A stretch of DNA of 64,000 bases, taken from contig JAUVNS010000005.1 in the NCBI GenBank assembly GCA_030599585.1, forward strand, positions 1 to 64,000. Direction: 5' to 3'. The translations under genes and the position numbers were made by a program. Origin of the DNA: Promethearchaeota archaeon. GTDB lineage: Archaea > Asgardarchaeota > Lokiarchaeia > Sigyniarchaeales > SOKP01. The first letter of the stretch is position 1. Each line of letters begins with the position of its first letter. Below, in pieces: positions 26,297 through 35,445 of this stretch. Below the pieces are notes generated by a model. That model worked only from the letters and a program-made list of their open reading frames with translations, did no database searches and was not told where the DNA came from.

Positions 26297-28459
26297 TTAT
26301 TGAATTGGTAGTCTAACAACGAATGTGCTACCCTTATTTCTTCCCTCGGACTCTGCTCTTATTTCGCCCTCGTGAGAATCAACTATTTCTTTTGAAATGT
26401 ATAATCCCAAACCCGTACCTTGGATATCAATATATTCAAATCCTTCTCCATATCTCTCTAATTTGCCAAATTTCGTAAATAACATTTCCATTTCCTTTGG
26501 AGATATGCCAATACCTGTATCGCTTATCGAAAATTCCGCAAAATTCTCTTTCTTTATCAATTTGATTACAATCTCCCCATTAGGTGGTGTATTTTTGATA
26601 GCATTAGATAAAAGATTCATAATCACCTGCTCAATTCTAACGAGATCTAAATTAATCTGGAACGATTCTGGTAATAGAAGCATTAAATTTATTTTTCTAT
26701 CTTTTATTAAATAGTTTAATTCTTTAGATATTTCCCGAATAATGACGCTAAGATCGTTCGGATTTTTTAAAAGTTTAAATTTCTCATAGTCTATTCTGGA
26801 GATATCAATTAAATTGTCAACTAAATGTTTTAGTCTTTTTCCTCCTTTTTCTATTAGCTCGACTATTTCTAATTCTTCTTTACTTAATTGTTCTCCATAA
26901 ATTGTTAAAAGAAGTTCGCATCCTCCACTTACAGAAACGAGAGGTGTTTTTAGTTCGTGCGATACTCTCGAGATCAAATTTTTCCTGATTTGGTCAAGTT
27001 CTTTTAATTTCTTCACTTCTTCTTCTACGAGGATCTCAGCTTCCTTTTTTGCTGTTACATCCGTAAATAAGGCTTGAACATACGTTTTTTCATTAATTTT
27101 TGTCAACGCTGCTTGTAAATTTGCCCAAAACACAACGCCATCTTTTCTATTTATTTTAAGATCCATTCGATGGAATTTTTTGCCTTTAACGAACTCTCTA
27201 AAAATTGTGAGAAGATTTGGTAAATAATCCTTATGTATTATGGGCAAATTCATAAATTTTTTACCTATTATTTCATGTCTATCGTATCCAAACATTTGTT
27301 CGGCTTTTGGGTTCATGTCTACGACAGCTCCTTGAGTGTTGATTAATACTACCGAAAACGGTGTGTTATCATAAAGATTGCGATATTTTTTTTCAGATTC
27401 TCGAAGTTTTTCTTCTAATTTGTATTTTTCTGTGATATCAATAAAGGTTCCTTCAATTCCATATCTATTTCCTCTTTTATCGAACATTAAATGAGAGTTT
27501 AATTGAACAACGACTTTCTTACCGTTTCTTGTCAAAGACGGGCAGATGTAGTTTTTTGCATATGTATCACTTAAAATTTGTTTTAAATAATGTTCTCTAT
27601 CTTCCGGATGTTGCCAAAAATCCGTAACCTTTTTACCAATTAAACTATCTGAAAGATCGTATTCTAAAATTTTATTATGAGCCGGATTGTGATTTAACAT
27701 TATCCCATCAAGAGTAACTTGATAAAAACCTACATCTAAATTATTAATCATGTTACGATATTTAAGCTCGGATTCTTTTAACCTCTCTTCTGCTTTCTTT
27801 CTTTCTGTTATGTCTTCAGTACGCACAACTATTAAATCTGGATCGACATAACTGTAATTTACAAGGAAATTTTTCTCTTCATTAGAGGATTTAAATCGGT
27901 AATTAATTTCTCGCTTAACATGAGTTTTATCATTCAGGCATAAATGCATATCATCTAAAATGTCTAATCGATCTTTATACATCTCCGAAACTTTATTTCC
28001 TATATAGTTTTCTACGCTTTTATAAGCTAATTTTGCCGCGGCGTTGTTGTAATTAACTAAAACAAAATCACCGTCCACATTTTTCCAAGTATACGCCGGT
28101 ATCGATCCTTCTTTAAACAATGCCTTGAACATACCTACCGATTCCTTTAATTTTTTCTCTGCTTTTTTACGTTCCGTTATATTTTTAGCTACCCCTAGTA
28201 CGGCATATATCTCACCATCTTTCTTAAGAGGAATCCCATAAGTTTCTAAGTAAATATATTCACCCATTTTTGTTTTAAGTTTATACTCGCTCTGGGCGGA
28301 TTGATATCCTGTTTTTCTTAATTCCTTCGTTACTTTGTATGCTTTGATCAAATTATCTCTGTCTAATAAATCAATAAAAGAAATATTAGGGATATCTTCT
28401 TTATCCATACCAAGAGCAATTAATGTTAAATCGCTAGCATCAAGGAAATTGCCATTCAA
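26297..28459 (-). CDS. Multi-PAS sensor histidine kinase (true 5' end probably upstream; frame is open to 28570)
   Basis: Four PAS/PAC repeats ending NITERK, DITERK, DITEK, DVTAK; SHELKTPL; NLLSNAIK, DTGIG, GTGLGL. Confidence 0.93.
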   Translation of the reverse strand: MNGNFLDASDLTLIALGMDKEDIPNISFIDLLDRDNLIKAYKVTKELRKTGYQSAQSEYKLKTKMGEYIYLETYGIPLKKDGEIYAVLGVAKNITERKKAEKKLKESVGMFKALFKEGSIPAYTWKNVDGDFVLVNYNNAAAKLAYKSVENYIGNKVSEMYKDRLDILDDMHLCLNDKTHVKREINYRFKSSNEEKNFLVNYSYVDPDLIVVRTEDITERKKAEERLKESELKYRNMINNLDVGFYQVTLDGIMLNHNPAHNKILEYDLSDSLIGKKVTDFWQHPEDREHYLKQILSDTYAKNYICPSLTRNGKKVVVQLNSHLMFDKRGNRYGIEGTFIDITEKYKLEEKLRESEKKYRNLYDNTPFSVVLINTQGAVVDMNPKAEQMFGYDRHEIIGKKFMNLPIIHKDYLPNLLTIFREFVKGKKFHRMDLKINRKDGVVFWANLQAALTKINEKTYVQALFTDVTAKKEAEILVEEEVKKLKELDQIRKNLISRVSHELKTPLVSVSGGCELLLTIYGEQLSKEELEIVELIEKGGKRLKHLVDNLIDISRIDYEKFKLLKNPNDLSVIIREISKELNYLIKDRKINLMLLLPESFQINLDLVRIEQVIMNLLSNAIKNTPPNGEIVIKLIKKENFAEFSISDTGIGISPKEMEMLFTKFGKLERYGEGFEYIDIQGTGLGLYISKEIVDSHEGEIRAESEGRNKGSTFVVRLPIQ

Positions 28460-30415: not shown

Positions 30416-31315
30416 ATGGCTAAACTTATGGATATTCCTGAAGAGGAATTCATATATCCTGGTACTAGAGCGTGCGCGGGATGCTCAATGGCACTAATAT
30501 ATAGAATAGCTCTAAAAGCTTTAGGTCCAAAGACGATAATTACTGTTCCTGCATCGTGCTTAACTGTTCTACACGGAATGCAAGGATTTTGTACCACTAA
30601 AGTTTCTGTACTTCACACTCCATTTGCCACTACAGGTGCTTCAGCATCGGGGATCGTTGCTTCACTTGAAGACAAAGGATTAGCTGACGATGTTAATGTG
30701 GTTGCGTTTGCAGGAGATGGTGGTACCGTAGATATCGGAATTCAGAGTTTAAGTGGGGCTGTTGAAAGAGGTACGAATTTTATTTATGCTTGTTACGATA
30801 ATGAGGCATATATGAACACTGGAGTCCAAAGAAGCGGAAGTACACCACCAGGTGCTTATAGTACTACTACTCCTAAAGGTAAAATAGGATATAAGAAAAA
30901 TATGCCTAAAATTTTAGAAGCACATGGCATACCTTATGTGGCCACAGCAATTTCTTCTTATCCTCTGGATTTATACGAGAAATTTAAACACGCTATGAGT
31001 ATTCATGGTCCAAAATATATTCACATTCTTGCTCCATGCCCACCCGGTTGGGGTTATAATCCAAAAGATTCAATTGAGATTGGGAGATTAGCAGTTCAAA
31101 CTGGGTTTTGGCCCCTCTATGAAGTAATTGAGGGTAAATTTGTATTATCAAAGGATAGTAGTAAATATTTAGATCCTAAAAAACGAAAATCTATCATAGA
31201 GTATTTGAAGACTCAAAAAAGGTTCAAAAACATATCTGATGAAGATATTGAGAGACATAAAAGTTATATTGAGGAACAGTGGAAGCAGATTCTAAAAAGA
31301 ATTGAAAATAAATAA
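30416..31315 (+). CDS. porB: Pyruvate/2-ketoisovalerate:ferredoxin oxidoreductase beta subunit
   Basis: ACAGC, GDGG...DNEAYMNTGVQRS TPP motif, PCPPGW. Confidence 0.95.
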   Translation: MAKLMDIPEEEFIYPGTRACAGCSMALIYRIALKALGPKTIITVPASCLTVLHGMQGFCTTKVSVLHTPFATTGASASGIVASLEDKGLADDVNVVAFAGDGGTVDIGIQSLSGAVERGTNFIYACYDNEAYMNTGVQRSGSTPPGAYSTTTPKGKIGYKKNMPKILEAHGIPYVATAISSYPLDLYEKFKHAMSIHGPKYIHILAPCPPGWGYNPKDSIEIGRLAVQTGFWPLYEVIEGKFVLSKDSSKYLDPKKRKSIIEYLKTQKRFKNISDEDIERHKSYIEEQWKQILKRIENK

Positions 31316-31426: not shown

Positions 31427-32212
31427 ATGCTAAAAACATACATTTTCGACGAATCTAATAAAAATTGGATTGAAGAGCGACTAAGTTTACTTTACCACGA
31501 TCTTTGCGCACTTCTAGATGAGGAACGCAATATTATTTACATATGGAACGGACCAAAAAGTTCTCAAGAAAGATTAAAAAAAGGATACGAACAATTAAAA
31601 AATCTAGTTTCTAATTACCCCAATATTGATTTTCAAATCTCTATATTGAATAAGAAAGTTCCAGATTATGTTCAGATTAGACTAGATAAAATGTTGAGCG
31701 AAATAAAGTATGATGATAAAAAAAAATTCGATAAGTTCTCAAGATTCATTACTTTAAGGCTTTATTTCATTTTTTTACTCCCAGCATTAATTTTTCCATT
31801 AATTTCATTTTTAAATCTGAGTACTTCGTTAACTTGGAGAAAAACGGGATATAATTTTGAAGTGAGTTCAGGACTTTACGATAATTGGCTATCAATTTCC
31901 TTACTTTTTATTATCCTAACAATAATATCCTTTGTGATTATCCTAATACTAGGTATTGTCGAAATCGAATATAAAATAATAACCTATTCAATTATAGGAC
32001 TTATCGTTTCTAGTGGAATTGCTATTTATCTCCAACAAGGAATATTCTTGTTTCTATTTCAAGATGGATCAACAGCTTCAATCTACTATATTAAACAAAG
32101 CGACATCCTATTATTTCTAGTAATAATCGTTTTTGGAATCGCGATATATGAAATACCAAATCTTGTAGAACTCATCAATTTCATTATAGTCTTTCGTAAA
32201 TTTATTCTTTAA
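31427..32212 (+). CDS. Gelsolin-like domain fused to a four-helix membrane domain
   Basis: N-terminal LLYHDLCALLDEERNIIYIWNGPKSSQERLKKG fits the gelsolin core (hhD...hYhWxGxxS); four hydrophobic segments from about aa 110 to 260. Confidence 0.7.
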   Translation: MLKTYIFDESNKNWIEERLSLLYHDLCALLDEERNIIYIWNGPKSSQERLKKGYEQLKNLVSNYPNIDFQISILNKKVPDYVQIRLDKMLSEIKYDDKKKFDKFSRFITLRLYFIFLLPALIFPLISFLNLSTSLTWRKTGYNFEVSSGLYDNWLSISLLFIILTIISFVIILILGIVEIEYKIITYSIIGLIVSSGIAIYLQQGIFLFLFQDGSTASIYYIKQSDILLFLVIIVFGIAIYEIPNLVELINFIIVFRKFIL

Positions 32213-32253: not shown

Positions 32254-33138
32254 ATGAGTAAAGCTGCGAAAATTCTCCCTAACATGGAAAAAGAAGACCT
32301 TAGGGTTTTAATGGCAATTGAAATTGGAATGCGAAGATCAGAATTTGTTACAATAAATAATATTAAATTCTATTCAAGGTATCCTATGGAAGAGACTTTA
32401 TATCGCCTTAAGAAGGTTCATAAACTAGATTTAATAATAAGAGATTCTTCAAAAAGTAAAGTAGGATATACTCTTAATTCAATTGGTTATGATATCTTAG
32501 CACTTCATACCTTAGTAGAAAAAGAGATAATTGGGCAATTAGGCCCATTAATTGGTAAAGGAAAAGAATCAGATGTTTATGGTTGTATGGATGATGATGA
32601 GAATATTTTCGCATTAAAAATTTATCGAATTGGGAGAACTAGCTTTAAAAGTATTAAAAGGCTAAGAAGTTTCCTTGGAAATCGAAAACATGCATCTTGG
32701 TTGTATATAAATCGACTTGCTGCTAAAAAAGAATTTGAAGCACTAAACAAGATTTATGAACTTAAATTAAATACTCCTAAACCAATTGGTTTTAATAGAC
32801 ACATAATAGTTATGTCTTACTTAAGAGGAAAAGAATTAGCCTATCATAGCAATATTAAAAACCCAGTCAAATTATTTAACAAAATTATCAAACAAGTTAA
32901 AATTATTTACCAAAAAGCAAAAATGATACATGGAGATCTAGGAGAGTTCAATATCGTAGTAGATCATAAAGATAATATTTTAATTATTGACTGGTTACAA
33001 TGGGTTCCTTCAGATCATCCAAATGCAAATTCGCTTTTAGAAAGAGATATAGGAAATGTGTGTAATTTCTTTAAAAAAAAATTCAATGTAGAAAGCAACC
33101 CTTTAGAAATCATTGAATCATTTAAAAAAAAAAAATAA
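32254..33138 (+). CDS. rio2: RIO2-type Ser/Thr kinase
   Basis: N-terminal wHTH (LMAIEIGMRRSEFV, GYDILAL), GKGKESDVY, IHGDLGEFNI, IIDW. Confidence 0.93.
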   Translation: MSKAAKILPNMEKEDLRVLMAIEIGMRRSEFVTINNIKFYSRYPMEETLYRLKKVHKLDLIIRDSSKSKVGYTLNSIGYDILALHTLVEKEIIGQLGPLIGKGKESDVYGCMDDDENIFALKIYRIGRTSFKSIKRLRSFLGNRKHASWLYINRLAAKKEFEALNKIYELKLNTPKPIGFNRHIIVMSYLRGKELAYHSNIKNPVKLFNKIIKQVKIIYQKAKMIHGDLGEFNIVVDHKDNILIIDWLQWVPSDHPNANSLLERDIGNVCNFFKKKFNVESNPLEIIESFKKKK

Positions 33139-34548: not shown

Positions 34549-35445
34549 TTAAGAGATAATCTTAGGTATCACTGTTTTATTTCTTATAATTGCGTATGAT
34601 GCGGGAATGGGGGCTAATGTGCCTCGATAATTAGCAGAAGAAAAAATTGATAACAATCGTTTGTTGAAAAACCATTTATACCCTTCAGGGAACCTTTCGT
34701 GAGCTCTTACCAAGTAATCTAATTTGTTTTCTCGCATAAAATCTGAGAATACATCTTCTCCAAAGAATTTGACCTCTCTTCCTCTAAAACTTTCCGTAAA
34801 ACCTTCTAGATTGGGTTTGGGATCGTTCCACATAATTTGTAGCAAGCTTTTAGCTGTATTTTCATCAATTAAGTTTATTTCTGATGTTTTAATACCTCTT
34901 AATCTATTAATAGCGTTGAATTCTTCTGGAATACCTCCATGAAGACACAATATGGATTCATTTACTAAAGCACTATAAGGAAGAGCGTTATATAATGCTT
35001 TAACCTGGTTAAATTTCTTAGGATCTTTAAACCGATTTAAAAAATCTTGATAAAACCCATAGTTCCGATTAACTTCTAGAGTTTCGTGATTCCCCTTTAA
35101 AAAAAAATATTTATTAGAATCTTTTATTTTTAATGCTAGGACTAAAATTAAGCACTCTAACTGATATGAACCGCGATCGACGATATCGCCTAAAAAGATA
35201 ACATACTTCGAGTTTTCTTTTTTGATGATTTCCATCAATTTCATCAGACTTTTCAAATCCCCATGGAGATCTCCAATTACCATAACTTTATCTTGTGGAT
35301 GTTCTTTCTTTAACTCCAAAATTAGAGTTTCTTCTCTAAATAACTTAACTGCTTCGCGAAAAACTAAAAGAAGTTTTTTAAACTTTAATTTGGCTATTAG
35401 ATATGGATTTTCGATTATTCTATCTAAGAATGATTGTTCTATCAA
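34549..35445 (-). CDS. PPP-family Ser/Thr protein phosphatase
   Basis: GDLHG, GDIVDRG, GNHE, HGG, WNDP, RAHE, FSSANY. Confidence 0.94.
   Translation of the reverse strand: MIEQSFLDRIIENPYLIAKLKFKKLLLVFREAVKLFREETLILELKKEHPQDKVMVIGDLHGDLKSLMKLMEIIKKENSKYVIFLGDIVDRGSYQLECLILVLALKIKDSNKYFFLKGNHETLEVNRNYGFYQDFLNRFKDPKKFNQVKALYNALPYSALVNESILCLHGGIPEEFNAINRLRGIKTSEINLIDENTAKSLLQIMWNDPKPNLEGFTESFRGREVKFFGEDVFSDFMRENKLDYLVRAHERFPEGYKWFFNKRLLSIFSSANYRGTLAPIPASYAIIRNKTVIPKIIS

Follow-up and report, generated by a model that had tools for sequence, protein, structure and literature searches.

Cultured Asgard archaea use Lokiactin to shape and move protrusions (PMC9834061, PMC13716822). The gelsolins described from these organisms are soluble. 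ProGel (PDB 7C2F; Akil et al. 2020, PMC7444086) is a stand-alone protein with a single gelsolin-fold domain; it bundles actin filaments though its Kd for actin is 337 µM, and five of five tested Thorarchaeota gelsolins act on actin in the same report. The 2DGel proteins (7C2G, 7WHG, 7WHF; PMC9433394) combine two domains with a WH2-like linker, carry type I and type II calcium sites, and cap and sever when triggered by calcium. In 1DGelX/B35_GelX, B35_Gel1 and B35_Gel2, one gelsolin domain is followed by a family-specific C-terminal part that is soluble (coiled or disordered), and 1DGelX is calcium-independent. In eukaryotes, ponticulin, ERM proteins and supervillin hold actin filaments at the membrane, the same job as proposed below; supervillin carries gelsolin repeats but is a peripheral rather than an integral membrane protein. 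The literature searched named no protein as tying Lokiactin filaments to the membrane, and the published co-immunoprecipitation (co-IP) is biased against membrane proteins. On Asgard gelsolins, the parts of the literature available to us cover ProGel, 1DGelX, 2DGel and further soluble forms only, and nine gelsolin-domain proteins of Ca. Lokiarchaeum ossiferum are tabulated in the supplement of PMC13716822; no transmembrane (TM) gelsolin of Asgard archaea was described in what was searched, though one may be mentioned in subscription papers or in that supplement. The gene reported here places a known gelsolin domain in an integral-membrane architecture that was found in no paper searched.

The window, a 64,000-nucleotide stretch from a Promethearchaeota archaeon, contains the gene and the neighbours listed in Table 1. 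The open reading frame is a genuine gene. A sequence search with the 261-aa protein returned 119 homologues of nearly equal length at 35-97% identity, and a profile search added full-length relatives at about 16-28% identity that retain both parts of the protein. The first-pass annotation had described the reading frame and its motifs correctly, and had also placed rio2 and a PPP phosphatase nearby, both of which Pfam recovered. The gene begins 111 bp downstream of the porB-like gene and ends 41 bp upstream of rio2. A sigma-70 promoter scan performed at chance level; such a scan is unsuited to archaea.

Table 1. Coordinates of the membrane gelsolin gene, its parts and its neighbours in the window.
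Feature	Position	Strand	Basis
Gelsolin-fold + 4-TM gene, 261 aa, ATG start	31427..32212	+	ORF call, 119 homologues
Gelsolin-fold domain, aa 1-88, motif D31-W40-G42, predicted cytoplasmic	31427..31690	+	AlphaFold model, Foldseek, VIA, profile, alignment
Long helix, aa 47-62; basic, net charge of aa 43-63 about +3	31565..31612	+	Model, alignment
Long helix: outer positions 47/51/52 charged, not hydrophobic; calcium-ligand positions 49 and 61 non-acidic	31565..31612	+	
Charged end of the domain's last helix, putative flexible hinge aa 100-102 (pLDDT <50), basic juxtamembrane segment	31691..31744	+	Model
Membrane helix 1, aa 107-136	31745..31834	+	Hydropathy, models
Outer loop 1: beta hairpin; conserved W137, Y/F151, W154; no conserved Cys or claudin signature	31835..31888	+	
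Membrane helix 2, aa 155-179	31889..31963	+	Hydropathy, models
Membrane helix 3, aa 182-203	31970..32035	+	Hydropathy, models
Outer loop 2: G205, F207, F209, F211, Y220, I222, D226; one of the best-conserved regions within the membrane module	32036..32104	+	
Membrane helix 4 continuing into basic cytoplasmic C-terminal helix, aa 227-260	32105..32206	+	Hydropathy, model
Upstream neighbour: porB-like 2-oxoacid oxidoreductase subunit	30416..31315	+	Named from sequence and gene order
Downstream neighbour: rio2	32254..33138	+	Pfam RIO1 and Rio2_N
Calcineurin-like phosphoesterase	34549-35445		Pfam

The gelsolin domain falls under the threshold of routine annotation: Pfam PF00626 scored 17.9 bits for aa 1-100 against a curated cut-off of 21, and the L. 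ossiferum homologue gave no Pfam gelsolin match. A gelsolin-repeat pattern had been noted in the first ~90 residues from the sequence alone, and modelling, together with structure and profile comparisons, confirmed aa 1-88 as a true gelsolin-fold domain. The AlphaFold2 model of the full protein (73 sequences; pLDDT 89.9, pTM 0.63) has strands at residues 2-8, 13-16, 26-31, 36-41 and 70-73 and helices at 47-62 and 80-101, and thus a predicted mixed sheet between a long helix and a shorter one, as in gelsolin homology domains. The best 50 Foldseek matches were gelsolin-family chains throughout, headed by Thorarchaeota ProGel 7C2F (E 2.5e-5; TM 0.72 by target), and VIA aligned 85 of the 88 ProGel residues (Z 10.1, rmsd 2.6). 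Searched against the PDB, a profile of 102 family domains matched gelsolin-family proteins only, with E values from 1e-18 (villin, six repeats) to 7e-8 (ProGel 7C2F). The DWG motif is well kept in the 102 homologues (D31 in 82%, W40 in 78% with an aromatic in 97%, G42 in 99%).

ProGel, the best structural match, also has the DWG motif, a basic residue at calcium-Glu position 49 and Asn-Tyr-Pro after the long helix, at 18-19% identity. Unlike ProGel, the domain retains Asp25 and is fused to four TM helices across the family. When 24 membrane-fused and 25 soluble Asgard domains were placed in one tree, built on a short alignment, a branch supported at 98/99 set the membrane-fused domains apart; the grouping of all sampled TM members in one clade is compatible with a single fusion.

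Hydropathy gave four membrane-length peaks after the gelsolin domain, and four helices also appeared in the models, bearing out the four hydrophobic helices of the first-pass annotation. Modelled alone, the membrane module formed a confidently predicted four-helix bundle (pLDDT 96, pTM 0.89). Loop 1 contains a short beta hairpin in this model, and loop 3, which is outer loop 2, has one helix and one strand. The low pTM of the whole model and the low-confidence residues at 100-102 suggest that a flexible hinge joins the gelsolin domain to this bundle. Lys+Arg number 6.1 on average on the side where the two termini and loop 2 lie, as against 1.7 in loops 1 and 3, and 97 of 99 homologues share the direction of this bias. 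On this basis the gelsolin domain is predicted to lie inside, with both termini cytoplasmic, in agreement with its earlier placement. Conservation within the module is highest at aromatic residues on the outer side. Some members (P0121, P0193, P0224, P0213) have long cytoplasmic C-terminal tails after helix 4, either Lys/Glu-rich or made of Pro/Thr/Lys repeats.

Among the sequence and structure matches listed, the module resembled no known family beyond generic bundles. Pfam searches of 99 members and sequence searches of the PDB returned no common family match, and an Atlas search with the membrane gelsolin family returned its own cluster alone. Foldseek found no match at E <0.001, and the best VIA score (Z 14.1) was to a designed helical bundle. 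Fold searches yielded generic four-helix bundles, cytochrome oxidase subunit III and, weakly, AMPA-receptor auxiliary chains, none of them significant; claudins and tetraspanins were not among the matches listed. Outer loop 2, at ~23 residues and with Cys in 0 of 99 homologues, is no counterpart of the large Cys-rich loop of tetraspanins, and no homology between the membrane module and linkers of the ponticulin, ERM or supervillin type came up in these searches.

In the genomes searched, the family is confined to one order of Lokiarchaeia. Of 400 Asgard genomes scanned with a profile of the TM module, 127 gave a match; every one of these belongs to the window's order (127 of 154), and the other 246 gave none. 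Full-length matches to a full-length profile occurred in all four families of that order, which takes in L. ossiferum (UYP46179.1, NEF87_002464) and Ca. Harpocratesius repetitus; matches outside it spanned the gelsolin part only. The labelled homologue matches are Lokiarchaeia (Promethearchaeota). Labels of Thorarchaeota, Hodarchaeota and Odinarchaeota on some matches might be taken for a wider range, which we rejected since those loci share the gene order of the window and the survey confines the module to one order. In one record titled as a Nanopelagicaceae bacterium (DATKTW010000096.1, L040), the complete gene block of the Lokiarchaeia is present with 82-95% identity; the record is probably mislabelled. 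A partial family gelsolin domain in frame with an EamA transporter, from a genome outside the order (L116:646-1782, minus strand; G058), was set aside as an apparent assembly chimera. Within the order the gene can be lost. At two loci (L172 and L173, genomes G174 and G168) a gap of 107-175 bp separates porB from rio2; the membrane gelsolin gene is cleanly missing there and was found nowhere in either genome. Since these genomes are 98-99% complete, the protein appears dispensable in some lineages; Lokiactin was present in the one of the two that was checked.

The surface by which gelsolin domains usually grip actin looks lost in the membrane-fused domain, judging from the alignments. From gelsolin G1 and the helical register and periodicity, we take positions 47/48, 51/52, 55 and 58/59 of the long helix to be the actin-facing side. 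Aligned on the WxG motif, soluble Asgard gelsolin domains are hydrophobic at 47, 51 and 52 in 19, 19 and 16 of 25 cases (64-76%); the membrane family is so in only 10, 15 and 17 of 101 (10-17%, from kin that are not independent, so that p-values exaggerate the contrast), Lys and Glu being dominant. ProGel has L/F/L/M at 47, 48, 51 and 52, whereas the window protein has Q/E/K/K. In the single-domain gelsolins that co-purify with Lokiactin (B35_GelX, B35_Gel1 and B35_Gel2, recognized from their places in the genome), position 47 is V or L and positions 51-52 carry F-I or M; the 4-TM family shows neither these residues nor the co-purification. In the alignment of homologues, few parts of the domain vary as much as the outer face of its long helix, and the domain offers few conserved surface residues for any partner. 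In 86% of homologues the segment aa 43-63 has a net positive charge.

Calcium ligands are likewise incomplete. Among 102 homologues, Asp25 is kept in 99% and Glu49 in 8%, and Asp is not among the common residues at 61; the first domain of the 2DGel encoded in the window's own genome has both E49 and D61. The fold of each 2DGel domain is otherwise like that of the membrane protein, which in the model has one gelsolin domain, no second tandem one, and then TM helices. The membrane-fused domain also drifts faster than 2DGel: between the window's genome and L. ossiferum, identity is 93% for actin, 49% for 2DGel domain 1 and 27% for the membrane-fused domain. The charged helix face, the two missing calcium ligands, this faster drift and the clean gene loss in some genomes make capping or severing by the domain unlikely. 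The genomes that carry the membrane gelsolin also encode near-invariant Lokiactin. In addition, the window's genome has ~12 further ORFs with soluble gelsolin-like domains, mostly under the Pfam cut-off, four being detected by Pfam; they are spread over contigs C1, C3, C8, C11, C20, C22, C24, C26, C31 and C34.

Evidence of expression was sought in the proteomes of L. ossiferum, taken from the supplement of 10.1101/2025.11.30.690169, in which locus tags differ. There, GNAMCCOK_02486 (54.82 kDa) corresponds to the M18 peptidase UYP46182 (calculated 54.823), three genes from UYP46179, from which we infer that UYP46179 is GNAMCCOK_02483; the tRNA count and a 43.97 kDa protein further on agree. GNAMCCOK_02483 occurs in 16 of 16 published proteomes, at a mean of 15.9 as compared to 21.7 for Lokiactin, and by its place in the proteome file ranks about 1200-1300 of 3061 in abundance. 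Through this mapping, the homologue would be made as protein in L. ossiferum. It was not among the Lokiactin co-IP rows covered, from the most enriched down to a log2 ratio of -1.06. By the authors' own account, the assay samples membrane proteins poorly (10.1101/2025.11.30.690169), so this absence is weak evidence.

The reading that we place first, and tentatively, is that of a calcium-independent cortical adaptor in weak electrostatic contact with actin filaments. Computation or published data support the fold, the topology bias, the conserved fusion and the expression of the protein; we infer the ligand and each step of the following mechanism. Four helices would anchor the protein in the cell membrane with both ends inside. 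A small aromatic-rich cap would face outward, where it may let copies of the protein associate or touch surface proteins. On the inner side one gelsolin-fold domain, independent of calcium, would hang into the cytoplasm on a hinge and, having lost the hydrophobic helix face that wedges into the actin cleft, should neither cap nor sever. Its basic helix would instead touch the sides of Lokiactin filaments weakly, gaining avidity from clustering in the membrane, and inositol-phosphate lipids perhaps compete with filaments for that helix. Such weak side binding is possible, and has a precedent in ProGel, which bundles filaments in spite of its high Kd (PMC7444086).

Several observations favour the cortical adaptor: the fold and DWG motif, the ProGel-like basic residue at 49, the net-positive helix, the single TM clade, the presence of Lokiactin in the same genomes, the expressed homologue and the link to profilin of a related 2-TM family (below). 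Against it stand the non-hydrophobic residues at 47/51/52, the variable outer face, the fast drift, the absence from the co-IP, the clean losses and the single-order range; other Asgard archaea also crawl, yet the membrane gelsolin was found in one order only. The protein is thus a candidate for joining the actin skeleton of these archaea to their membrane, and its role with actin is doubtful. The idea that it is an actin anchor or capping factor survives in part: the gelsolin fold, the four-helix membrane module, the predicted cytoplasmic domain and the conserved fusion stand, while the step from these to actin runs against the charged, variable helix face, the missing calcium ligands and a homologue that is not among the proteins enriched with Lokiactin. 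Capping is unlikely, and the protein may be a weak tether. An integral-membrane gelsolin-fold protein that Pfam misses, that is annotated as hypothetical and that appears to be made in L. ossiferum is a concrete tether candidate; our analysis contributes its mapping onto the proteomes and evidence that speaks against canonical actin binding. Should it prove not to bind actin, an archaeal gelsolin domain would have been recruited to another membrane job, as in Sec23/24. The restriction to one Lokiarchaeia order limits the bearing of either outcome on the direct ancestor of eukaryotes.

A bolder version, possible but doubtful, would make the protein an integral-membrane Lokiactin receptor and the first archaeal actin link across the membrane to an outer cap. 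It and the profilin-linked 2-TM family would then make up a membrane-anchored, gelsolin-fold set that builds the cortex in those Lokiarchaeia that form protrusions. The 2-TM family was recognized in L. ossiferum as a 245-aa gelsolin-like protein with two TM helices (L184:1033-1770, minus strand), immediately downstream of the profilin B35_Pro1 (mass of 22.82 kDa matching). It aligned to the membrane-fused gelsolin domain with an hhalign probability of 95.7, and maps to GNAMCCOK_02670, detected in 15 of 16 L. ossiferum proteomes. A profilin-like gene is adjacent in 15 of the 16 loci of this family (L210-L225), which often lie upstream of a TFIIB gene; its position beside profilin indicates that membrane-anchored gelsolin-like domains can be tied to the actin system. 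The 2-TM family shares the Asp25 signature and, with Tyr48 and often Leu51, retains a more hydrophobic helix face; it may be a better candidate actin tether than the 4-TM family. The L. ossiferum query found no match to it in the window's genome.

Lipid binding is a close rival to the cortical adaptor, though unlikely on balance. Gelsolin domains bind phosphoinositides, and the basic domain could dock on ether lipids in the inner leaflet that bear anionic inositol-phosphate groups, marking or regulating the sites where these are made, or organising lipids, without touching actin directly. The basic helix would suit this role, and so would the genomic setting of paralogue 2 and of the copies in the most distant family: a CDP-alcohol phosphatidyltransferase gene (PF01066) lies within 1.5 kb in 22 of 24 such loci, across three families, and the gelsolin gene is often directly upstream on the same strand. 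In L. ossiferum the enzyme sits where the PIP synthase UYP47972 of 10.1101/2025.11.30.690169 is expected, a match by position only. The window's own paralogue, however, is not adjacent to this enzyme. Gene order is conserved over long blocks, so the neighbours may be passengers, and kin loci are not independent; moreover, a basic patch beside a membrane is common. Many of the paralogue-2 and distant-family loci (L169-L171, L183, L190-L209) have Ala-Arg at helix positions 47-48. One L. ossiferum locus (L183:1510-1788, minus strand), also near a CDP-alcohol phosphatidyltransferase gene, encodes a gelsolin domain of 92 aa that belongs to the membrane-fused clade (E 5.5e-21) but stands alone, lacking any TM part. 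In one genome of the most distant family, assembled as a single contig, the membrane gelsolin gene has as neighbours another gelsolin-domain gene, of 422 aa (L169:7861-9129, plus strand), and a gene for a ubiquitin-conjugating enzyme.

It is improbable that the domain acts like the gelsolin-like domain of Sec23/24 and brings some other cytoplasmic protein, for instance a small GTPase or a coat-like factor, to the membrane. That of Sec23a is not known to bind actin (PMC7444086), and a fold kept while its actin face is lost would fit a similar role. Small GTPase genes occur near some paralogue-2 loci. On the other side, no Sec23 chain was among the best Foldseek matches, and the scarcity of conserved surface residues counts against any partner. 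At aa 79-90, in what we take to be the register of the Sec23 arginine finger, no Arg is conserved; position 85 is K in 38%, E in 28% and R in 10%.

A canonical membrane-bound capping or severing factor, seated in the cleft separating subdomains 1 and 3 of actin like gelsolin G1 or 2DGel D1, is very improbable. The fold and the cytoplasmic position would allow it, but the helix face is charged, the Glu49 and Asp61 ligands present in the 2DGel D1 of the same genome are wanting, and the second gelsolin domain is missing. Among human gelsolin domains, moreover, the family profile scores G3 best and G1 worst.

A role at junctions or in membrane domains like that of claudin/PMP22/Sur7 proteins, with a cytoskeletal link built in, is hardly credible: the protein resembles that group in its four TM helices, both ends predicted inside and small beta elements in both outer loops, but lacks the W-GLW-C-C signature, has a much shorter first loop (~23 residues) and drew no Pfam match of that kind among 99 members. 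The claudin-like W...GLY noted in the first-pass annotation is present in this sequence and occurs there by chance, GL[W/Y/F] being found in 1 of 99 homologues, and the absence of the claudin Cys pair remarked at the same time holds for the family, with any Cys in loop 1 in 4 of 99. A functional partnership with the neighbouring Rio2 kinase, PPP phosphatase or oxidoreductase can scarcely be credited either, since the order porB - membrane gelsolin - rio2, seen in 78 of 80 loci of close relatives and with so short a gap to rio2, belongs to a conserved block of 15 kb, is replaced in L. ossiferum and its kin by TFIIB and DNA methyltransferase flanks, and closes up to porB beside rio2 in the two genomes that lost the gene. 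The adjacency to rio2 and the phosphatase, mentioned in the first-pass annotation, is therefore uninformative, and other families of the order show no linkage to rio2. Elsewhere in the window, a PAS histidine kinase gene (26297-28459, minus strand) lies between porC and porD on the opposite strand; it is missing in several relatives (loci L107, L109, L112, L115), where porC adjoins porD.
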